From NCBI RefSeq assembly GCF_002803295.2, contig NZ_PGGB02000001.1:74290-106289 (forward strand): a stretch of DNA of 32,000 bases. The letters are read 5' to 3'. Numbering within the stretch: position 1 is the first letter of the stretch; each line of letters opens with the position of its first letter. The stretch is from Caedibacter taeniospiralis (GTDB lineage Bacteria > Pseudomonadota > Gammaproteobacteria > Francisellales > Francisellaceae). Of the stretch, positions 1 to 30,604 are shown piece by piece. Under the pieces are notes generated by a model that saw only the letters and a list, made by a program, of their open reading frames with translations, did no database searches and was not told the origin of the DNA. The translations under genes were made by a program, and so were the position numbers.

Positions 1-84
1 GGCGGCAATTTATACCGCCGAGGATAGCCGATTCGATTTTGTGTATGGATATACAAAATCTATCATGAGGCCCGAGGCACCCTG
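1..84 (+). repeat. Copy A (3' terminal part, truncated by the window edge) of a repeated structured non-coding element. It ends exactly where phoR-like coding sequence resumes at 85.
   Basis: Positions 7-84 are identical to 780-857 (78/78). The stem ggcgg(1-5)/ccgcc(15-19) is also present in copy B (766-770/788-792), with a shorter loop here. Confidence 0.8.
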
Positions 85-1315
85 ATTGTTGATCAACAAG
101 GATTGCTGCAGTGGTTTAATCAGGCAGCGAGGAATTTTTTCAAGTTATCTCCCGCGCACATATCACAGGATATTTCCGAAGTATTTGAATTTCCGACCTT
201 GACCGTTTACTTGCAGCAAAAGAACATGAGCGCATTTGAGCTGCCACTGCCTAAGCGACCAGATCAGATACTGTCAGTGGTTTTAATTCCGTATGATCAA
301 CATTTTCTCTTAATTACCCAGGATGCAGGTTATCGACACCATATTGAGCGTATGCGCCAGGATTTTGTTGCCAATGTCTCCCATGAAATGCGTACGCCCT
401 TAACTGTAGTTTTTAATAGTTTGCTTAAGTATAAATTTGATTACATTATAACCTATGTAAAATTTACACGCTTAGATTAACAGACCATTTAAAGTTTAAA
501 TTTTTCTAAAACTAATATCGAGGATTAATTTGTAGCCGTTCGATTAGTCTTACTACATCTTCAATCGCTGCGAGCCATGGATAGCGGAACGCGAGGGCGA
601 GTAGACCCGGGTAGCCTTGCGCTGTTGATCAGCAAGCGACGTGCCGAAGGCGCCAGAGCGAAGTCTGTGAAAAAGCTTTTACCCAAGGCGTAGAGTAGAA
701 TCGGAAACGTGTTGTCTGTTCGGAATGAGCGTAGCGAATTTGTGAGGACAAGCACCGTTGAGGCGGGCGGCCCGGGCAAAATTTATACCGCCGAGGATAG
801 CCGATTCGATTTTGTGTATGGATATACAAAATCTATCATGAGGCCCGAGGCACCCTGTTTATTTTTCAGTTGTTCTACTGTAAGACTTTTTGAATTAGTA
901 ATTTCTTTAAGACGAATTTCTAATGTGGAACCGACAGTTTTATAGTGCTCAACTATATCTGCTTCTCGTTATGTAAAAAGTATTTTAGAAACAAATAAAT
1001 TGCTCTTTTAGCAATCTGATTATGAATGCAGTGCGTTATTCACCTCATGGTGGCGCAATTAAAGTAGTCTGGTATCAGGACAGGCATGGCAAACATTTCT
1101 ATGTTAAAGACGAAGGCGTGGGAATTGATCAACAACACATTCCTCGCCTGACCGAGCGCTTTTATCGTGTTGACAAGGGGCGATCTCCTGAAACTGGGGG
1201 GACAGGGCTTGGGCTGGCAATCGTGAAGCATGTGTTGATTGGGCACAAGGCTTCTCTGAGTATACAGAGCGAGTTGGGTAAAGGCAGTGTGTTTCGCTGC
1301 GATTTTCCAAATTAA
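85..1315 (+). pseudogene. phoR: PhoR-like sensor histidine kinase, disrupted. Segments are PAS plus H-box (85-408, frame 1), a dimerisation-helix remnant (859-1008, frame 1) and the HATPase_c domain (1010-1315, frame 2).
   Basis: Segment 1 reads IVDQQGLLQWFNQAA...RQDFVANVSHEMRTPLTV, a PAS region plus H-box resembling E. coli PhoR. A ~450-nt insertion follows. The frame-1 remnant VRLFELVISLRRISNVE contains an in-frame TAG at 943-945. A +1 shift in the T-run 1006-1009 leads to the N-box SNLIMNAVRYS, G1 DEGVGI, the F-box RFYRVD and G2 GGTGLGLAIVKH. Confidence 0.8.
409..857 (+). mobile_element. Copy B of the non-coding insertion in phoR. An AT-rich 5' part (409 to about 555) is followed by a GC-rich structured core (about 560-857). 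No ORF, no terminal inverted repeats and no obvious target duplication. Family unknown.
   Basis: It interrupts the phoR frame right after the H-box. Its 3' end is defined by identity with copy A. Hand-folded helices: 576-584/833-840 (closing), 616-620/632-636, 641-645/649-653, 654-657/664-667, 667-672/677-682, 698-704/801-807, 709-716/747-755, 766-770/788-792, and hairpin 808-833. Confidence 0.6.
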
Positions 1316-1367
1316 ACCCATTCAGTTGATTAATCAAAGTCAGTCTGTTAGCTATGCGCTTAGACGC

Positions 1368-2135
1368 TCAATTTATGGAATACTTCGTTGGCTTTGCCTG
1401 TTTAACAATTTCACCAAAGTCCTTTGCTGAAAGAGAAGCTCCCCCTATTAACCCTCCGTCCACATCAGCCAGGCTTAACAGCTCGTTGGCATTGGATGGC
1501 TTAAGACTGCCGCCATATATAATCTTGATGTCTTGAGCAAGTTCGACATGAAAGTTTGTAACGATTGAACGCAAATAGGCATGAACCTCTTGAACCTGTG
1601 ACGCGGTTGCCGCAAGTCCAGTACCAATTGCCCACACAGGTTCATAGGCAATGATCGTTTTTCTCAATTGATTCAAGGTCAATTTATCCAGCACTATTTG
1701 TAATTGATGTTTTAGCACTTCCCGTAATGTGCCAGAAGTTCTCTCACTGAGCGTTTCACCAACGCATACGATAGCACTAAGTCCTGCTTCAGTTACCTTT
1801 TTTGCTTTAAGTGCGACATCTTGATTTGTTTCTGCAAACAGTGCTCGTCGCTCTGAATGCCCAACAATAACATATTCACCATTGAAGTCCTTTAACATGC
1901 TCACACTTACTTCACCCGTATAGGCACCGTTATCATATTGACTGATATTTTGCACCCCAAGACCTATGCCTTTGATATTTTCCGCAACATAGGGCAAATA
2001 GACATGGGGCACGCATACCGCCATATCTGCATGTTGATGTGCTCTTGCCACTTGATTAAGTAACTCGCACAGACTTTTAATTGATAACAAAGAGCCATTC
2101 ATTTTCCAATTGCCAATAATAATTTGTTTTCTCAT
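1368..2135 (-). CDS. tpiA: Triosephosphate isomerase
   Basis: 255 aa. N-terminus MRKQIIIGNWKMNGS, plus VGHSERR and YEPVWAIGTG motifs. SD aggaagg lies upstream. Confidence 0.95.
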   Translation of the reverse strand: MRKQIIIGNWKMNGSLLSIKSLCELLNQVARAHQHADMAVCVPHVYLPYVAENIKGIGLGVQNISQYDNGAYTGEVSVSMLKDFNGEYVIVGHSERRALFAETNQDVALKAKKVTEAGLSAIVCVGETLSERTSGTLREVLKHQLQIVLDKLTLNQLRKTIIAYEPVWAIGTGLAATASQVQEVHAYLRSIVTNFHVELAQDIKIIYGGSLKPSNANELLSLADVDGGLIGGASLSAKDFGEIVKQAKPTKYSIN

Positions 2136-12975: not shown

Positions 12976-13556
12976 TAGTCATTTGTTTGCCCAAAGGAAG
13001 TCATGGACAAAAAGGTTGAAATTTGCCTAAAGCTCACCTCAATATCGCTATACGCGTGACCTTGCCCCGTCTTAATATCGATATTCGCACCTGCAAATAC
13101 CTGTTTAGCAAATTGTATGGGTGTTGTCATATCATCCTCCTGCAGCAATACCAGGTAATTTTTCAAATCTTTCAACGTTTTTGGCATTGCATTAACCAGC
13201 ATCATCGCCTCTTCATACACATGCTGATAGGCAGGAGTTTCCGCGATCAAATCAAGGCGTACGGCGGGATTAATTAAAACCACCTTATCAACATCATCAC
13301 GAAGCTGCTTTTGCAAATGCGCCATATAGCCGCCCAGGGAGCTGCCGATAATTACTTTGTGCCTGGCGTTCGTTCTTGTCAGCAAGCGATCAATTAAGTC
13401 GAATGCTTCTTTGGTCGTCGCTGGCAATTGTGGTGCTTCTATGATCGCGTGAGGATACTGTTGCTTTAACCATACTTTAAGTTTTTGCGCTTTTGGGGAA
13501 TCAGGGGAGCCCTGAAATCCATGTAAATATAAAAAATAAAGGCTGCTATTATCCAT
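12972..13556 (-). CDS. YqiA-like alpha/beta-hydrolase esterase (UPF0227 family)
   Basis: 194 aa. LYLHGFQGSP and the nucleophile elbow GSSLGG. Its stop overlaps the downstream KS start (ATGA). Confidence 0.75.
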   Translation of the reverse strand: MDNSSLYFLYLHGFQGSPDSPKAQKLKVWLKQQYPHAIIEAPQLPATTKEAFDLIDRLLTRTNARHKVIIGSSLGGYMAHLQKQLRDDVDKVVLINPAVRLDLIAETPAYQHVYEEAMMLVNAMPKTLKDLKNYLVLLQEDDMTTPIQFAKQVFAGANIDIKTGQGHAYSDIEVSFRQISTFLSMTSFGQTNDY

Positions 13557-13562
13557 TTTTCC

Positions 13563-15257
13563 TCACAACATGTACTGCCAACAATTAATCAAATGATAGC
13601 CCGTGGTCGATTTTATCAAGTTAAAACCAGGATTACCTGAATAATCGACGTACTCAACAGGTAAATCATGATCGATAAAGGTCGCACTGAATGTATCAAA
13701 CACTGAGGCTAAAGACGCAGATTGTCCGCTCATTGCCAAGTAACGCATATACTCCAGCATCGGCCAAATGCGATATGGCGAGGTTTGTTCATTTTCATGC
13801 AGATTGGGTCTCACGTATCCCTTCGCACTCAAGCCTTGCTTTAAAGTCTGCTCAAAGAGGGTTTTATCATCATCCATCACACTGATATCAACACCTAAAC
13901 TCTTCGCTTCGGTCATTAAAGAGCACCACTCAAAGCTGTGTCCTGGCTCAAATATTTCAGGTTGCTCTTCAATAGAGTACTCACGTATCAGTTTTTTTTG
14001 TGGATCAAAAAACAATACCATGATCTTGCGATACAAGTCTTCGGCTTGCGCTTTAAATAAAGTTTCACGGGTATGCCGAAAAGCCATCAAATAGCCTTCA
14101 AACAAGTGCATCAGTGCATTTTGACCAATCACCCCTGTTTCACTTCTTAAGCGACTAAATTCGTTTTCGATAAATTTTTGGTGAATGCGTGTGTGAACAT
14201 TTAAAATGTCCTCCAACAACGCTTCCTCCTTAAAATTGCCATACAGCTCACTTAGCGAAAACAACAAAAAGGCGTATTCATACGGATCGTTGTCATTTTT
14301 GCAGAGCTTGTCTTTGTACCAACCCTGGCTAACTGAATCAAAATATTCATTTTTGATCATCTGATATAGCTGATAGGCTTTATTAAGTCCCTCTGTTGTA
14401 TTGGTTAAGCGTGCATATGTTAGTAAATAAAACATGCCGCGCGTTTGGCACAATAGTCTCGTGCAATCTGCGTCAATTTCATGGGGTTTATCCAAAAACT
14501 CTGGCACATAACCCAAGTGCTCAATATTTTTAATAAGAAGCTGGTAATAACACTCCATCCAGAGCTGAATTGCCTTTTGCCTGTTTTTCAATTCAATTGC
14601 CGATAAGATTTTATCGAATACCTCTCTGATGCCCAAGTGACCTGTATCGATAATCCACGCATCTTCTGCAGGTCTTAATGGTGCCACGACCCTATTTCTA
14701 TCTTGCCTGTCCCGCGCCTCTAACTGCGCCAAAATCTCGTCATAGTCTGCCTTTTCACCTTTTACTGCAAGCTCGTCAAAACGTCTCTTTGCACGTATTC
14801 TGCTATTTGCTTCAAGAAAAAATTTATGCTTGGCATGAGGAAATACTACCGTTCCCATATCTCTGCCATCTGCCACAAGTCCATTCACACCTTCTGCAAA
14901 GTCCTTTTGACACTGCATTAGCGCATCTCTTACCACAGATATTTTTGCAATCTTAGAAGCCATCATTCCTGTTTGCTCTTCGCGAATGCGGCTACTAACA
15001 TCAACTTCATCCAAATAGGCTTTTGTCTTATCTGCCTCAACCGAGAAACGAATATTCAGCTGCGCTAGCTTTTTTGCCAACATACGCTCATCATCCAATG
15101 GCAACTGGTGATCTAACACATAAAGTGCCGCCAGTCGATAAATTGCACCACTGTCTAGCAGGGCATAATTGAACTTTTGTGCCAATAATCGTGACAATGT
15201 GCCCTTACCCACACCACTGGGTCCATCAATCGTAATAATTTCTACTTTATTTGGCAT
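13563..15257 (-). CDS. cmk: Fusion protein: N-terminal cytidylate kinase plus a C-terminal N-acylglucosamine 2-epimerase (AGE) superfamily (alpha/alpha)6-barrel domain
   Basis: The Cmk part has IITIDGPSGVGKGT, LDSGAIYR and a DGRDMGTVVFP-like motif. The C-terminal ~340 aa has QTRGMFYLLTYA, YEYAFLLFSL, NALMHLFEGY, EPGHSFEW and TTGYH. One uninterrupted ORF. ATG 15257 has an aagg SD. The ORF track start is 15290. Confidence 0.82.
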   Translation of the reverse strand: MPNKVEIITIDGPSGVGKGTLSRLLAQKFNYALLDSGAIYRLAALYVLDHQLPLDDERMLAKKLAQLNIRFSVEADKTKAYLDEVDVSSRIREEQTGMMASKIAKISVVRDALMQCQKDFAEGVNGLVADGRDMGTVVFPHAKHKFFLEANSRIRAKRRFDELAVKGEKADYDEILAQLEARDRQDRNRVVAPLRPAEDAWIIDTGHLGIREVFDKILSAIELKNRQKAIQLWMECYYQLLIKNIEHLGYVPEFLDKPHEIDADCTRLLCQTRGMFYLLTYARLTNTTEGLNKAYQLYQMIKNEYFDSVSQGWYKDKLCKNDNDPYEYAFLLFSLSELYGNFKEEALLEDILNVHTRIHQKFIENEFSRLRSETGVIGQNALMHLFEGYLMAFRHTRETLFKAQAEDLYRKIMVLFFDPQKKLIREYSIEEQPEIFEPGHSFEWCSLMTEAKSLGVDISVMDDDKTLFEQTLKQGLSAKGYVRPNLHENEQTSPYRIWPMLEYMRYLAMSGQSASLASVFDTFSATFIDHDLPVEYVDYSGNPGFNLIKSTTGYHLINCWQYML

Positions 15258-15441
15258 ATTTCTAACCTTAAACTCAAATGCCAAGGGCATTCAACAATAT
15301 ATCTATGAAGAATTTTGCGCCCAATTCTACTATCTATTGTTGAAGAAACCAAACTATACCCATCGCAAATCATGGTCGCCTCATTAAAATTTTGCCCATG
15401 GCACTACCTTGTAGAATCTCGTCAACTATACTTTTTGACAT

Positions 15442-17652
15442 ATGGATTATCAGGATCTGCTGAACATGAATAAAACGGGACATCGTGAACAAGGCAGTGT
15501 ACTACTGATAGCACTCATCATTGTTGCTGTAGTATCAATATTATCAGGTGTTATTTTGTATATGCTGAAAGTCAGTATGGTGCAAAATCAGGCGATTGAA
15601 AACTACAATAATGCGCGCAATGCTGCGTTTTTATCTTTAAAAAATACGATGGAAACAAATGATTACCCCTACACCAATACACCTTTAAGTCCTGTTGTAA
15701 AAAATTATACTTCAAACGCTGAAAACATTACCGTGACTAGTACGGTACCTGTGGATTTAAATGATGCTATCTTTCCCGATCATGCGGCGCTTAATAACGC
15801 CTCCGCCGTGTTGCAATATGGTGTAAATATACGGGTTACTGCACAGGCACAACACCAGATCGAATACGTAGCTATTGTCAATGCGCCCAGCCAATACAGG
15901 CAATTAAATGATTTAACATCGCAAGCAATACAAAATGTGAATATCCCTGCAGTAATTTTGACTAACTTGAATGCTTTACAAAAAAACGCTAACAATACGA
16001 TAGATGACGGGCAGGCAGGATTTCTAGGGACTATCAGTGTGGATAACACAGGAACCGTTGGGGCAGCTGGTTCTGGTAAACAGCTGAACTATAGTCCAAC
16101 CACGGGAGGGAGCCATAGTTTAGAATTTGCAGATAATGGGAATTACAAGCTCGAACAAGGCTGGTATTTAAATGCTGGAGCTTGGCATTGGCGTTTGATC
16201 ATCTATGAGGGGGCGTATGCTTACTATACGGAGATAGCTTTATCTACACTGAAAGCTCAGTCAGGGAGTTTTGCTAATTTAGCCTGGACGCGCCTTCTTG
16301 TGCAAGACATGCTAAGCTCCCCCAATCAATATGACTCAAGTAAAGAATATCCAGCAGGCAGTTATGTGAACTATGCTGGGCAGATTTTTGTGGCGTTAAG
16401 TGAGGTCAACACAGGTCAGAATAAAGACCCTTACAGTAATTGGAGCCAATGGCGATTAATCATCCCATTTGGTACCTATCCAGCATGGAATGCGGATGTC
16501 CAATACTACAAAGGTGATATTATTACGTACAATGGTGTCAAATATGTTGGTACCATGAACAATGGGGTCGGGAAGGGGGATCCTCCCAGTAATGGCTGGG
16601 CAGTGGCGCAGTTTAATCCTGCGCCTTGGCAGAATCAAGTTTATGATCCTGGTGAGTTCGTAACTTATGAGGGCTATACTTTTGTCAACGTCCATAAAAG
16701 TGTCGCGAGCAAAACACCATTTGAAGAGAGTGACCGCTGGAGGGTTGTTTTACCAGAGAATAGTCAGCCACTGGCTTATGATCCCCATATTTATTACACA
16801 GAAGGTTTTAAAATCAGCTATAAGAATAATATTTTTGTAAACACCCAAGGGACAATGGAAAGCCCTGATTCCTCTCAGGCTAATCGGTGGCTTAAGATTA
16901 CGACACCGATATATACAATAAAATGGATCAATATCTTTAATCTCATTTATGGTTTTACCCTCATTCAAACTACCGATGGTACTATTAAAGGGTTCATTTT
17001 TGATAATGTGGGGAATCAGGCGAGTGCGGCAGTGGAGTTAGTGACACTCTCAGATGTGACTCATGCCTATATTTTACCTATAGATATCAGAGCGAATCAG
17101 AATGTAACCAGGTTACTGTTGTTTCTATCCGTGGCTTCGGGACTTAAGCATATTGTTGACATCACGTTAAATTCACAAGCTCAGATCACAGCAAGCACGA
17201 TTATTTACACAAAAGATGATCCAGAGGAACAACTTAGCTATGTTCCACAGGTTTTGTTTAGAGATGAAAGTAGCCATTTTTTGGTCGTGCCATACCAAAG
17301 CTACATCGAGATTTATGTCTATCCCTCTTCATCAACTACACCTTCGGCTGTTTTAAATCGATCAGTTAGTTTTCCAGGGGAAACGCTGAAACAAGTCATT
17401 CCTTTTCAGGGTTTTGTAATGGTGATTACCGAGAGTAATAGCAATCCTCCTAATGGTTTTGCCCATTTTATTGCCTTGAGAGTTAATAAGGAATTTGCCA
17501 CTGTCAATCTAAGCTCAACGACTGGCGTTTATATAACTTACAATCCAGTAACGCAACAAACGCGACTTAACACTTCAACAGACTCAATCGGGATCGAAAT
17601 TCAAGATGCGCCTATGCCTTATGGCGTGATTGGAGTGCGGGCATTGCAATAA
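15442..17652 (+). CDS. PilX-N-like membrane-anchored protein with four CBM5/12-like repeats and a beta-rich C-terminal domain
   Basis: The N-terminus REQGSVLLIALIIVAVVSILSGVILYML...NARNAAF resembles the PilX N-terminal domain of minor pilins. There is no canonical G/FTLxE prepilin cleavage motif. An alternative start is ATG 15466. Confidence 0.68.
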   Translation: MDYQDLLNMNKTGHREQGSVLLIALIIVAVVSILSGVILYMLKVSMVQNQAIENYNNARNAAFLSLKNTMETNDYPYTNTPLSPVVKNYTSNAENITVTSTVPVDLNDAIFPDHAALNNASAVLQYGVNIRVTAQAQHQIEYVAIVNAPSQYRQLNDLTSQAIQNVNIPAVILTNLNALQKNANNTIDDGQAGFLGTISVDNTGTVGAAGSGKQLNYSPTTGGSHSLEFADNGNYKLEQGWYLNAGAWHWRLIIYEGAYAYYTEIALSTLKAQSGSFANLAWTRLLVQDMLSSPNQYDSSKEYPAGSYVNYAGQIFVALSEVNTGQNKDPYSNWSQWRLIIPFGTYPAWNADVQYYKGDIITYNGVKYVGTMNNGVGKGDPPSNGWAVAQFNPAPWQNQVYDPGEFVTYEGYTFVNVHKSVASKTPFEESDRWRVVLPENSQPLAYDPHIYYTEGFKISYKNNIFVNTQGTMESPDSSQANRWLKITTPIYTIKWINIFNLIYGFTLIQTTDGTIKGFIFDNVGNQASAAVELVTLSDVTHAYILPIDIRANQNVTRLLLFLSVASGLKHIVDITLNSQAQITASTIIYTKDDPEEQLSYVPQVLFRDESSHFLVVPYQSYIEIYVYPSSSTTPSAVLNRSVSFPGETLKQVIPFQGFVMVITESNSNPPNGFAHFIALRVNKEFATVNLSSTTGVYITYNPVTQQTRLNTSTDSIGIEIQDAPMPYGVIGVRALQ
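16324..16899 (+). repeat. Protein-level tandem repeat: four ~45-aa CBM5/12-like (chitin-binding type) modules inside the PilX-like CDS
   Basis: The modules are YPAGSYVNYAGQIFVAL...WSQWRLI, YPAWNADVQYYKGDIITYNGVKYVG...NGWAVA, APWQNQVYDPGEFVTYEGYTFVN...DRWRVV and YDPHIYYTEGFKISYKNNIFVN...NRWLKI. All fit the pattern W/Y..Y..G..V.Y.G..Y......P....W. Confidence 0.6.
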
Positions 17653-25880: not shown

Positions 25881-26159
25881 ATGGATGACTTGTTAGGTGG
25901 TGAGCTGACTATTGGTGAGGCGATTTATACCATAAGGGTAACAGAATATGCTGATTTAAAACAATCTGAGTTTGCGGACAAAATCGGAGTTTCAAAAAGC
26001 TACTTATGTGACTTAGAACACAACAGAAAGAGCATAAGCATTGCAAAGGCTATTGATGTAGCCAATAAACTAGGACAAAGCAAAAGGTTTTTTGTAACTT
26101 TAGCAGTGCAAGACTCGTTAAGAAGGAATAGCTTAAAGTATAAGGTTAATCTGGCTTAG
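25881..26159 (+). CDS. XRE-family helix-turn-helix protein (antitoxin-like) with no adjacent partner gene
   Basis: 92 aa. The HTH is QSEFADKIGVSKSYLCDLEHNRKSISIAKAIDVANKLG. No clear SD. Confidence 0.75.
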   Translation: MDDLLGGELTIGEAIYTIRVTEYADLKQSEFADKIGVSKSYLCDLEHNRKSISIAKAIDVANKLGQSKRFFVTLAVQDSLRRNSLKYKVNLA

Positions 26160-26255
26160 TGGGGCTGCTGAATAGTTATCACTAAGCTGTTGATTAAAAT
26201 CCGATTTTTCGATTTTTAAAGAATCAAATCCCCCTTTGCTCTTTCAATATCAGGC

Positions 26256-26594: not shown

Positions 26595-28613
26595 CTACAT
26601 AATTCCATTGTGGCGCAATAGTGCATCGATTGTTGGTTTTTGCCCTCTAAAGGATTCAAATAATTTAGCCGCAGGCTCGGAGCCTCCCTTTTCCAGAACT
26701 TCACGCATAAACTTCAGCCCTATTGATCTGTTCAACACCGAGCTTTGAGATTCAAACACCGAAAAAGCATCACTTGACAACACTTCTGCCCACTTGTAAC
26801 TGTAGTACCCTGCGGAATACCCCCCTGCAAAAATATGTGAAAAGCTATTTTCAAAACGATTATATACAGGGGGATTTATCAATGCCGTGGAATTTCTCAC
26901 CTCTTCTAGTACTTGGTGAATATCCAAATGCTCAACCTCTGCCTGATGCAGTTTCATATCAAATAATGCAAACTCCAATTGCCGCAACATTGCAAGCCCT
27001 GATTGATATCGTCTTGATTGAATCAGTTTTTCAAACAAGGATCTCGGCAAAGACGCTCCCGTTTCAATGTGACAAGACAATAAACCCAAGCCCTCCTCAC
27101 ACCAGCAAAAGTTTTCCATAAACTGACTTGGTAACTCCACGGCATCCCATTCCACACCATTGATTCCGGATACAGGAAGATGTTCTACTTGCGTCAAAAT
27201 ATGGTGTAGCGCATGACCGAACTCATGAAATAACGTCAATACATCATTATGTGTTAATAGTGCCCCTTTATCCGCTTTTGGCGGCATAAAGTTGCAGGTT
27301 ACATAAGCAACTGGAATCTGTATGCTTTGATCCAGACGCCTGTACCGCGTGCGACATTCATCCATCCAGGCACCATCACGCTTATGCTCTCTGGCAAATA
27401 AATCAACGATGATCGCTCCTCTTAAAGCATGACTTTCATCATAAAATTCATATAAAGCTGTCTCAGCCTGGTAACGATCCCAGCTCGCCACCTCACTTGC
27501 CCTAATTCCATAAAGTGATTCAATGACTTTTAGCAAACCGTGGGTAACATGAGCTAGCGGGAAATAAGGGCGCAACTCTTCAGCCGTAAAGCTATATTTA
27601 GCCTTCTTCATTTTTTCACTATAGTAGCTAACATCCCAGGACTTAAGCTCTTTGCCATACCCTTCACTCTCAACAAATGCTTGAAGTTCCCTAAGTTCTT
27701 TTTGCGCTTGCGGCTTTGCTTTCTCACACAGATCCTTTAAAAAATGTATGACCTCATCCACTGAACTCGCCATTTTGCTTGCCAAAGAGACTTCAGCATA
27801 GTTTCTGAATCCTAAAAGCTCAGCCTCTTTTGCCCTTAACTGCATAATTTCCTGCATGATTGGTGCATTATCGAAACGTTTATTTTCTGCCTGATCTGAT
27901 GCACGTGTCACATACGCATGATAAAAGGCTTCACGCAATTGACGATTGTCAGCTTGCTGCATGACCGAAATATACGTTGGCGCATCAAGTCCCAGACAAA
28001 ACCCATCCTTCCCTTGCGCCTTGGCTTTTTCTCTAGCCTGTGCTTTAGTGTTGACCGACAACCCATTAAGCTCTTTTTCATCTTCGGTCCAGTAATGCCA
28101 AGCCATCGTTGCATCAAGCACGTTGTTCTCAAAATCACTTTGGATTTTCGCAAGCCTTGTGGCAACCTCCTCAAATTGACTGCGCTTATCGTCATCAAGA
28201 TCAACGCCAGAGAGCTTAAAAGCACGAATGGCATCTCCAATGGCCTTAATCTGTGCTAAATCCAGCGTTTTATCTTCCTTTAAGATGCGCTGATATGCTT
28301 CCAGCATGCGCCTATCTTGTGCGGTTTGAGTTGAATATTCTGAAATTTTCTCTACACACGCTTGAAAAACCTCGCGCAATTTGGGGGTGTTTTTGACTGC
28401 ATTTAAATGCGCCAAAGGACCAAACGTCTTAGAAAGCCTGTCTTCTTCTTCCTCCATCGGATAAATGAAGTTATTCCAGGTTAATGCTTTTTGTTGCAGT
28501 AAATTTTCTTTTAATTCTCTACAGCGCCGTATACAAGTCTCTACCTCAGCTTGTGCCTGATTAATATCCAGTGTAGAGAAAACAGGCAGGTCTAAATTAA
28601 TAACATTTCTCAT
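26595..28613 (-). CDS. prlC: Oligopeptidase A (M3 family zinc metallopeptidase)
   Basis: HEFGHALHH zinc motif and M3 architecture. ATG 28613 has an aaggaa SD. The ORF track start is 28646. Confidence 0.92.
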   Translation of the reverse strand: MRNVINLDLPVFSTLDINQAQAEVETCIRRCRELKENLLQQKALTWNNFIYPMEEEEDRLSKTFGPLAHLNAVKNTPKLREVFQACVEKISEYSTQTAQDRRMLEAYQRILKEDKTLDLAQIKAIGDAIRAFKLSGVDLDDDKRSQFEEVATRLAKIQSDFENNVLDATMAWHYWTEDEKELNGLSVNTKAQAREKAKAQGKDGFCLGLDAPTYISVMQQADNRQLREAFYHAYVTRASDQAENKRFDNAPIMQEIMQLRAKEAELLGFRNYAEVSLASKMASSVDEVIHFLKDLCEKAKPQAQKELRELQAFVESEGYGKELKSWDVSYYSEKMKKAKYSFTAEELRPYFPLAHVTHGLLKVIESLYGIRASEVASWDRYQAETALYEFYDESHALRGAIIVDLFAREHKRDGAWMDECRTRYRRLDQSIQIPVAYVTCNFMPPKADKGALLTHNDVLTLFHEFGHALHHILTQVEHLPVSGINGVEWDAVELPSQFMENFCWCEEGLGLLSCHIETGASLPRSLFEKLIQSRRYQSGLAMLRQLEFALFDMKLHQAEVEHLDIHQVLEEVRNSTALINPPVYNRFENSFSHIFAGGYSAGYYSYKWAEVLSSDAFSVFESQSSVLNRSIGLKFMREVLEKGGSEPAAKLFESFRGQKPTIDALLRHNGIM

Positions 28614-28710
28614 CGTATTTTTATTCCTTTGGCATAACTTCTTCATTCTGGTTGTGCTTTATAATACACTGATTCCACTGTGAAGAAATACGAAAAAGTA
28701 TCAATCAATA

Positions 28711-29355
28711 ATGCCCGCTGACCTCACTACTTACCTTAATGCCTTTGTAATGTTTATCATCCCTATGCTATTTGCCATCACACTGCATGAGGCAGCGCAT
28801 GGGTTTATTGCCAAACTTCGAGGCGACCAAACGGCTTATCTTATGGGGCGCGTGACACTTAACCCCATTAAGCACATCGATATTTTGGGAACGATTATTC
28901 TACCCACTGCCATGTTTCTATTAGGAACAGGCTTTCTTTTTGGCTGGGCAAAACCTGTTCCTGTTAATTTCAGCCATCTTAAAAAGCCGCGCCAAGACAT
29001 GATTTTAGTGGCAATCGCAGGACCACTTGCCAACTTTGCTATGGCGATTATGTGGTTTTTATTATGGAAATTTGTCCCTAACTTTGGCTTCCACCAAATG
29101 GCACAATTTGGTGTTGTACTGAACTTAATGCTGATGGTGTTTAATCTACTGCCCATCCCACCTCTAGATGGCAGTCGCGTCGTTAGCGCCCTACTGCCCT
29201 ATAAAGCCACTTTGCAATACAATCGCCTTGAGCGCTGGGGATTTCTAATCGTGCTGCTCTTATTGTTTATCCCCTTTGGTCAGTCAAATTTACTTGCAAG
29301 CATACTGATCCCAATCATCAACAAACTCTATCAGCTCGTTCAGTTTATCTTTTGA
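28711..29355 (+). CDS. M50-family site-2 protease-like membrane metalloprotease
   Basis: 214 aa. HEAAHGFIA (HExxH) in a TM helix, and NLLPIPPLDGSRV. Confidence 0.85.
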   Translation: MPADLTTYLNAFVMFIIPMLFAITLHEAAHGFIAKLRGDQTAYLMGRVTLNPIKHIDILGTIILPTAMFLLGTGFLFGWAKPVPVNFSHLKKPRQDMILVAIAGPLANFAMAIMWFLLWKFVPNFGFHQMAQFGVVLNLMLMVFNLLPIPPLDGSRVVSALLPYKATLQYNRLERWGFLIVLLLLFIPFGQSNLLASILIPIINKLYQLVQFIF

Positions 29356-30428: not shown

Positions 30429-30508
30429 TTTTTTGACAAGTCCTTGGTATTCTTTGCCTATCCAGAAAAATGGGCTTAGGCAAATTTTCCGCCCAAACAA
30501 AAGTCACG

Positions 30509-30534
30509 GTCATTCCCGCGAAGGCGGGAATCCA
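30509..30534. repeat. REP-like palindromic unit ATTCCCGC-GAAG-GCGGGAAT
   Basis: A perfect 8-bp stem (30512-30519/30524-30531) with a GAAG loop. It matches the ATTCCC-N8-GGGAAT class of intergenic palindromes, which I recall from memory in several proteobacteria. Confidence 0.65.
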
Positions 30535-30604
30535 GCTTTTAAATGACTCCTGCAACCTCGCATAGGGTGACAGTGGGCGGGAAGATGGTCGGAGCCGAAA
30601 AATG

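Follow-up and report, generated by a model that had tools for sequence, protein, structure and literature searches.

The subject of this analysis is a 32,000-nt stretch of contig NZ_PGGB02000001.1 from Caedibacter taeniospiralis (hereafter the window; 43% GC overall) and a gene-less element that occurs twice at its beginning, where the phoR gene is disrupted. A first-pass annotation, made from the letters alone, had described the repeat as a structured non-coding element lying twice in a phoR pseudogene, and had proposed that it was mobile and that its functional RNA, if any, was read from the + strand. The element is 292 nt long, and we regard it as almost certainly a real, recently mobile and unclassified non-autonomous unit with the boundaries given below. 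Its mode of movement is a more tentative matter and is weighed in the last section.

The boundaries of the element were determined by aligning seven copies together with an empty site on pKAP298 (NC_005915.1; L002), the R-body plasmid of C. taeniospiralis, and by comparing 26 3' junctions and eight 5' junctions. Window positions 409-1020 were compared by BLAST with a plasmid collection, metagenome contigs were scanned with the 3'-terminal 21-mer of the element, and contigs of near-identical strains were retrieved by look-up with proteins of the window. The contigs named below are L028 (JACCDZ010455144.1, GCA_013572825.1), in which an intact phoR (HisKA and HATPase_c) adjoins phoB; L005 (JACCDZ010571528.1), from a metagenome strain; L025 and L026, which are Logan contigs; L029 and L030, phoR contigs from strains SRR28719867 and SRR28719869, respectively; and L040 and L001, Logan contigs of run ERR3813248. 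Altogether, ~250 kb of Caedibacter sequence was examined, which is only a fraction of the genome. Partner genes were sampled from the pKAP298 annotation and from 66 open reading frames (ORFs) in ~100 kb of contigs flanking copies. The features of the window are as follows.

1-84, + strand: copy A, the last 84 nt of the element (the window begins within it), ending ...GGCACCCTG
85-407, + strand: phoR fragment, PAS region to H-box, 100% identical to L028 9053-8731
408-565, + strand: AT-rich plasmid-like DNA (25% GC), 90.7% identical to pKAP298 27200-27360, ending in the target motif CTTCAAT (559-565)
566-857, + strand: copy B, the full-length element of 292 nt, CGCTGCGAGCC...GAGGCACCCT plus G, delimited by copy alignment, empty site and junctions
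808-833, + strand: 12-bp near-perfect palindromic hairpin, GATTTTGTGTAT-GG-ATATACAAAATC, 23-24 nt before the 3' end of the element
858-988, + strand: AT-rich plasmid-like DNA, continuing the stretch split by copy B, 86.6% identical to pKAP298 27050-27198
989-1315, + strand: phoR 3' fragment, N-box to stop codon (window 989-1400 is 99% identical to L028 8441-8030)
15644-15647, - strand: empty target site, at which L005 carries a copy, ...CCATCGT(A)^TTTTTTAAAG

Extent, ends and content of the element

Window positions 7-84 are identical to 780-857, as the first-pass annotation had noticed, and within the window a 27-mer from the shared repeat occurs nowhere else (0 occurrences expected by chance). 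The reported 8-nt indel is also present: copy A reads GGCGGC/AATTT and copy B reads GGCGGC-CCGGGCAA-AATTT, the 8 nt having been deleted inside copy A relative to the other copies. The GC-rich core was likewise confirmed, with 55% GC in the element versus 25-28% in the adjoining DNA and 43% window-wide. The extent had to be revised: copy B had been taken to span ~450 nt (409-857), whereas the seven-copy alignment and the empty site on pKAP298 delimit a unit of 292 nt at 566-857.

The two ends of the element are asymmetric, with CGCTGCG (CGCTGCGAGCC) at the 5' end and ...GGCACCCT (GAGGCACCCT) followed by one variable base at the 3' end. Terminal inverted repeats (TIRs) are absent, the ends in the copy alignment not being complementary, and only a weak subterminal inverted repeat was found (CATGGATAG close to the 5' end and CTATCATG close to the 3' end). 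The hairpin at 808-833 is invariant in all copies and is the sole strong hairpin of the element; it contains one G.T pair, so that it is complete on the + strand only and imperfect on the - strand. The 5' end, considered as single-stranded DNA, forms no significant hairpin relative to shuffles (z = 0.00 on the + strand and 1.26 on the - strand).

None of the four ORFs inside the element (38-72 amino acids) matched Pfam at E values up to 10; the frame of 72 amino acids has no relative among 5.8 billion proteins and is nowhere a called gene. No promoter-like or terminator-like sites were detected in or at the element, and ARAGORN found no tRNA-like gene in it. The earlier description of a unit with no ORF that has a homologue, no TIRs and no target duplication is in agreement with these results and with the junctions described below.

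Copies, insertion sites and recent movement

The 26 different 3' junctions, of which two are in the window, five on pKAP298 and 19 on Caedibacter-like metagenome contigs, all end in GGCACCCT, and the eight 5' junctions (8/8) begin at the same base. In the plasmid collection pKAP298 was the sole match (98.7% identity over window 549-865); four of its copies are full-length and a fifth has an internal deletion. The metagenome scan yielded 19 genuine loci (JACCDZ, JACCEA and Ga0078894) and one chance match (L019); the loci are clearly Caedibacter wherever they overlap the window or the plasmid, L005 being 99.6% identical to window 13135-15646. The majority of the metagenome contigs break inside the element, in line with what a repeat that disrupts assemblies should produce, and the contigs of ERR3813248 stop ~30 nt into repeats. 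Copies are 95-100% identical to one another and form two subfamilies. A 116-nt derivative retains 33 nt from the 5' end and 83 nt from the 3' end, with the deletion lying between GGGC microhomologies, and a 5'-truncated remnant of 25 nt in L012 keeps the exact 3' end. An AT-drifted remnant of the last ~46 nt, also with the exact 3' end (TTTTGTATGAATATATAAGATTTATCATGATACCAGAGACACCCT), occupies pKAP298 48085-48130, which suggests that the family has been in the lineage long enough for copies to decay.

A longer master copy did not emerge from an nhmmer profile search over the ~250 kb, whose matches were confined to the copies already known, the internal-deletion derivative and two remnants of the 3' end. 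Neither end of the element matched IMG/VR viral contigs, and the phage collection gave no match. The scan of genome contigs with the 3' 21-mer returned only a chance match in a metagenome-assembled genome of Gemmatimonadaceae (L003, the same as L019), the source genome being apparently absent from that collection. The element appears restricted to Caedibacter and has so far been found only in the Paramecium endosymbiont C. taeniospiralis. The genome papers of this species do not mention the repeat in their treatment of repeats, transposons and mobile elements (PMC5773718, PMC7297999).

The insertion of copy A can be followed base by base. Its 5' junction lies outside the window and was read from L040 as ...GATGCCGTCGTT/CGCTGCGAGCCATGG (i.e. 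...GCCGTCGTT/CGCTGCGAGCC). The last 30 nt of L040 coincide with the 5' end of the element and are 100% identical to the window; the contig probably comes from the same strain, since L001 from the same ERR3813248 sample matches the window at 100% over 1326 nt. The filled 3' junction (84/85) reads ...GGCACCCTG/ATTGTTGATC, and the empty phoR allele in L028, L029 and L030 reads ...GCCGTCGTT/ATTGTTGATC, with ATTGTTG after the insertion point. The insertion of copy A between T and A of phoR neither duplicated nor removed a single nucleotide, and comparison of its junctions with the empty allele assigns the final G to the inserted DNA and not to the target. The insertion split the PAS region and inactivated phoR directly.

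Copy B has a different history. Both copies had been said to end exactly at a junction with phoR, which is correct at 84/85, where 85-407 equals the intact phoR of L028 at 100% identity; at 857/858, copy B meets plasmid-like DNA, and phoR resumes only at ~989. The segments 408-565 and 858-~988 correspond to one contiguous stretch of pKAP298 (27050-27360, 87-91% identity). This stretch takes in the 3' end of a hypothetical gene and the DNA downstream of it, and 27199/27200 within it is the empty site for copy B (...CCTCAAT^ATTTTTTTT...). The window lacks 289 nt of phoR (L028 8442-8730) and has 581 nt of plasmid-like DNA and copy B instead, with 3-nt microhomologies where the segments meet, TGT at the left joint and approximately GCT at the right. 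Judging from these alignments, the 581-nt block is a plasmid-to-chromosome transfer by illegitimate recombination. Since copy B lies within this block, it arrived as a passenger and not by transposition into phoR. In L029 (~6258) and L030 (~3147), phoR is free of the element and carries a GAA-to-TAA nonsense change (compare L028 8441); the phoR of L028 is open. With the element and the plasmid block in the window and the nonsense change in L029 and L030, phoR is undergoing independent decay in several lineages.

Strains that are 99.0-99.8% identical in the phoR-tpiA region lack both window copies. Conversely, the site at ~15645 is filled in L005 (1-125) and empty in the window, L025 and L026; it sits within the 5' part of an ORF of 728-736 amino acids (15442-17652). 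Three strain-specific insertions were thereby recorded among genomes 99.6-99.8% identical (8-17 kb compared), and this presence or absence by strain indicates that the element is, or very recently was, active. At least 26 insertion sites, together with the strain-specific presence and absence, bear out the first-pass proposal of a mobile ORF-less element against its alternative of a local duplication scar.

The target motif was compiled from the nine sites with an available 5' flank, and the +1 base and the terminal base from all 26 junctions. Directly 5' of the insertion the consensus is C-W-W-C-R-N-W, with C at -4 and R at -3 in nine of nine sites, W at -5 and W (T or A) at -1 also in nine of nine, and C at -7 in seven of nine; T follows at +1 in 16/26 (W^T). 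The motif holds only ~5-6 bits of information, and GTTC and CTTG are absent. At its own 3' end the element reads CACCCTD, in which C occupies -7 and -4 as in the target motif. The last inserted base is A in 12, G in nine, T in five and C in none of the 26 junctions. It is partly inherited, being A in all five subfamily-2 copies and G in the three G202 copies, and nevertheless varies among otherwise identical copies. Inspection of all junctions by hand revealed no consistent target-site duplication (TSD) of 1-2 nt, shared crossover dinucleotide or carry-over of flanking bases. An internal guide resembling an exon-binding site (EBS) was considered (AGCGAAG/AGCGTAG versus the motif heptamers) and rejected, since a motif this loose should yield ~2 matches by chance.

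Fold, RNA families and the resident intron

The helices listed in the first-pass annotation are complementary as described, and the hairpin at 808-833 comprises 12 bp with a G.T pair; the closed RNA architecture into which they had been assembled has neither an energy signal nor covariation. Folding of the repeat region was no better than chance relative to dinucleotide shuffles (z = 0.34 on the + strand and 1.06 on the - strand), and RNAalifold on six variants gave 0 compensatory pairs for the + and the - strand alike. A one-sided change that keeps the pair (e.g. G-C to G.U) affects five predicted pairs on the + strand, and more pairs are broken on the - strand, so the preference for the + strand proposed earlier persists weakly, with no compensatory change behind it. 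Among the helices proposed by hand there were again 0 compensatory changes, two pairs in one helix were kept by one-sided change, and 3/5 helices contained broken pairs. The ggcgg/ccgcc stem, which had been thought intact, has an A.C mismatch in 5/6 aligned copies. The covariation check suggested for the copies returned 0 compensatory changes, in a set of copies (95-100% identical) too alike for a real covariation test.

Rfam searches yielded noise only, whether the whole window was run at the gathering score or 1-1100 and 556-880 at E values up to 10, and the label "unclassified" is retained: no Rfam family or insertion sequence (IS) terminus matched in the collections searched. This result bears on the suggestion that the element is an IS200/IS605 derivative still making an omega-RNA with a guide that extends into the 3' flank. 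A motif 5' of the insertion resembling a transposon-associated motif, the right-end hairpin and the + strand bias are features that such a derivative would have. The omega-RNA, HEARO and IS605-orfB models of Rfam did not match the element alone at E values up to 10, no residual tnpB coding was seen in any frame, no tnpB or tnpA gene is among the matches listed for the sample, and the target motif is degenerate. We consider an omega-RNA derivative improbable.

Among the options named in the first-pass annotation was an ORF-less intron-like element. Insertion without TSD and the position of one plasmid copy next to a group II intron are compatible with an ORF-less intron of either group, I or II, or with a piece of the group II intron resident in Caedibacter. 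On pKAP298 this copy abuts an intron with a reverse transcriptase (RT) at 39601-40626, a partial D1-D4-6 match and DV-DVI at 40945-41058; an intact intron in L024 (475-2485) starts with GTGCGCC and has a full D1-D4-6 match. The plasmid intron (38846-41065) is dead, its RT ORF being cut to 341 amino acids, and its domain I has an expanded T/A homopolymer, T17A6 versus T8A4 in L024. The copy of the element lies antisense within domain I, preceded by ...CTTCATA, and the plasmid intron has lost its first ~104 nt; the element therefore entered an existing intron, and a deletion or recombination event next to it came afterwards. Membership of the element in the group II intron was ruled out by comparison with the intact intron in L024. 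RF00029 and the group II D1-D4 models gave nothing on the element and detected the resident intron in L002 and L024, and the group I core model (RF00028) did not match. The element has no GUGYG (its 5' end is CGCUGCG), domain V or D1-D4, is too small at 292 nt, inserts at diverse sites with no conserved homing site, and ends in G in only 9/26 junctions, so the intron reading is refuted by these tests and retains next to no probability.

Movement through RNA is a different question. The resident intron encodes an RT/maturase of 444 amino acids that is multicopy in Caedibacter (P0002-P0008 are variants 98-99% identical), and the cell thus has a reverse transcriptase at its disposal. A structured + strand transcript could be copied into AT-rich sites, in a manner similar to short interspersed nuclear elements (SINEs), by the RT of this intron, which is apparently intact, or by another RT. 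The GC-rich element in an AT-rich genome, the 5'-truncated remnants with an exact 3' end (L012; pKAP298 48085-48130) and the one-sided substitutions that preserve pairs on the + strand only are consistent with this route, and the variable, purine-rich, non-target 3' base resembles what untemplated nucleotide addition or a ragged 3' end of the RNA would leave. Other observations speak against it. There is no promoter-like site in or at the element, the invariant 5' junction (8/8) needs a precise RNA 5' end with no ribozyme family match to supply it, the fold energy is like that of shuffles with no covariation, no similarity to the 3' end or domain V of the intron was seen, and the 5' position of the conserved motif at the target places it a long way from where target-primed synthesis would begin. 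Group II RTs are not known to mobilise RNAs other than introns in bacteria. RNA-mediated retroposition is considered unlikely, and slightly more so in its fully specified form, a bacterial SINE-like retroposon whose + strand RNA has a ragged 3' end and is copied into AT-rich DNA by the intron RT or another RT.

Comparison with eukaryotic SINEs gives a similarly divided picture. The element is like them in being short, non-coding, putatively structured, GC-richer than its surroundings and of high copy number, with an exact 3' end, occasional 5'-truncated copies and a resident RT. Unlike SINEs, it has no internal promoter, no tRNA, 7SL or 5S ancestry, no A-tail and no TSD, and its 5' end is invariant; we know of no description in bacteria of a SINE-like class of non-intron, non-autonomous retroelements. 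The directional RNA-seq (Dual-Seq) data set PRJEB36201 is cited in PMC7297999. ERR3813248 is suspected to belong to it, and if so, the phoB-phoR-element junction would be transcribed by read-through.

Candidate modes of transposition

The element encodes nothing, and the enzyme that moves it must therefore act in trans. The interpretation that we favour, with a probability of roughly 0.4, is that copies A and B go back to two separate and recent insertions, and that the element, which is 292 nt long, non-autonomous and specific to this lineage, is mobilised in trans by HUH-type single-stranded-DNA transposition; the HUH mechanism considered separately is held just as tentatively, somewhat short of an even chance. 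An HUH-type enzyme would carry out strand-specific transposition of single-stranded DNA, either by the 'peel and paste' route of IS200/IS605 or by a rolling-circle route like that of IS91 and Helitrons. Its cuts would fall on the + strand, on the 3' side of a short motif, CACCCTD^ at the right end of the element and CWWCRNW^ at the target, and the + strand-specific hairpin at 808-833 may be the right-end recognition signal. This model is favoured because insertion is clean and 3' of a motif, the right end carries a similar motif, the hairpin is complete on one strand, and both termini are kept in the 116-nt derivative.

Other recombination chemistries accord less well with the junctions. DDE transposases produce TSDs, and tyrosine and serine recombinases need common core or overlap bases at both junctions. 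DDE transposition is excluded, given no TSD and no TIR, and tyrosine or serine recombination is unlikely, as no core or overlap is shared at the junctions. Mechanisms with a fixed guide (IS110 bridge RNA, or group II homing by EBS and intron-binding-site pairing) are contradicted by the 26 unrelated flanks of near-identical copies. The lack of TIRs and TSD, the weak subterminal inverted repeat and the long GC-rich non-coding body might nevertheless recall a non-autonomous IS110/IS1111-type element with a long non-coding arm encoding a bridge-RNA-like guide. A fixed guide would give one target where 26 unrelated flanks are seen, there is no common core dinucleotide, the subfamilies differ internally and share the target motif, and no DEDD transposase is among the matches listed for the sampled ORFs; the IS110-type reading is very improbable.

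Several observations weigh against HUH-type transposition. The model explains neither the degenerate target motif nor the absence of a left-end hairpin, and no fixed 4-5-mer is present at the nine sites (CAAT, CATA, CGCT, CACT, CGTT, CGTA...). The hypervariable last base, which in copy A is not derived from the target, is not explained by a precise cut-and-join reaction. Orientation is unbiased relative to local GC skew, although this is a weak test. No Y1 or Y2 HUH transposase, TnpB, IS110-type enzyme or other evident partner gene is among the matches listed for the pKAP298 annotation and the 66 ORFs. High GC content and a weak + strand signal are, moreover, what a functional RNA would show.

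The comparison with known HUH-type families reflects the same balance. Known IS200/IS605 elements have a fixed tetra- or pentanucleotide target and hairpins at both ends, and IS91 has a fixed tetranucleotide (GTTC/CTTG) adjoining its ori end. Like the palindrome-associated transposable elements (PATEs) derived from IS200/IS605, e.g. the cyanobacterial 'Nezha' elements, the element is a few hundred nt long, ORF-less, free of TIRs and TSD and presumably mobilised in trans, and it inserts 3' of a short one-strand sequence and has an imperfect subterminal palindrome at its right end. Unlike PATEs, it has a degenerate 7-nt target, no left hairpin, a variable 3' base and a high GC content in an AT-rich genome, with no TnpA or TnpB among the matches listed for the sampled sequence and no Rfam omega-RNA match. 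The IS200/IS605 idea of the first-pass annotation thus survives in its geometry (no TSD, insertion 3' of a motif, right hairpin) and not in the fixed target, the left hairpin or the omega-RNA, and no TnpA/TnpB partner is among the matches listed for the sampled sequence.

Asymmetric ends, the lack of TIRs and TSD, a single hairpin shortly upstream of the 3' end and remnants that keep the 3' end are shared with IS91, ISCR and Helitrons; the W^T insertion is reminiscent of the A^T site of Helitrons, and the purine-biased terminus after CT may be compared with their CTRR. The element departs from these groups in the distance of the hairpin from the end (23 nt and not 10-12), the absence of GTTC/CTTG and the lack of clear read-through transduction; no Y2 transposase is among the matches listed for the sampled ORFs. 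Non-autonomous IS91 derivatives are, to our knowledge, not an established bacterial class. The element works most like non-autonomous elements of the IS200/IS605 or IS91 type and lacks defining features of either, and its insertion signature fits no catalogued IS, miniature inverted-repeat transposable element (MITE) or RNA family.

This lack of fit leaves room for an enzyme class new to such ends, and thus a new mechanism, with the multicopy PD-(D/E)XK putative transposases of the Rpn/YhgA-like type as an example. The 66 sampled ORFs include Tn3, TniA/TniB, tyrosine recombinases, Rpn/PD-(D/E)XK proteins and IS256; Transposase_31/Rpn genes are present on pKAP298 and as 2/66 of the ORFs beside copies, where PDDEXK_2, PDDEXK_9 and YhcG nucleases also occur. 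PD-(D/E)XK 'putative transposase' genes are unusually frequent near copies (L004, L008-L016) and on pKAP298 (28353-29252). Such an enzyme is suggested by the Transposase_31/Rpn and PDDEXK genes on pKAP298 and beside copies, by the fact that no known family shows all of its defining features here, and by a variable terminal base that fits no known precise mechanism. The association is circumstantial, as mobile elements cluster and no Rpn gene stands in a fixed arrangement with a copy, and Rpn proteins are not known to us to recognise defined ends. We regard a new enzyme class as a minor but appreciable possibility.

Classical MITEs mobilised by DDE enzymes resemble the element in being small, ORF-less, multicopy and strain-polymorphic, and differ in having the TIRs and TSD that it lacks. 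The window itself has a GC-rich classical MITE of 124 nt at 30473-30596, with imperfect TIRs (GGCT...CCGCCC / GGGCGG...AGCC) and an 8-bp TSD (GAAAAATG); it is absent from the 99.6%-identical L032, and no second copy occurs in the sequences examined. Upstream of rpsL, window ~25955-26193 (~240 nt) contains a small XRE/HTH-like ORF, where L032 has ~70 nt with a hairpin (GTGTAATTCCCCTTCAC...GTGAAGGGGAATTACAC), another strain-specific replacement.

Obligate endosymbionts are expected to lose mobile DNA. In C. taeniospiralis, a 292-nt gene-less parasite is still jumping between strains ~0.3% apart, disrupts genes such as phoR and litters the R-body plasmid. The element breaks short-read assemblies of Caedibacter, and it offers markers for strain typing. 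Naming the enzyme that moves it would either extend HUH-type transposition to a new non-autonomous kind or reveal a route through RNA or a new nuclease.

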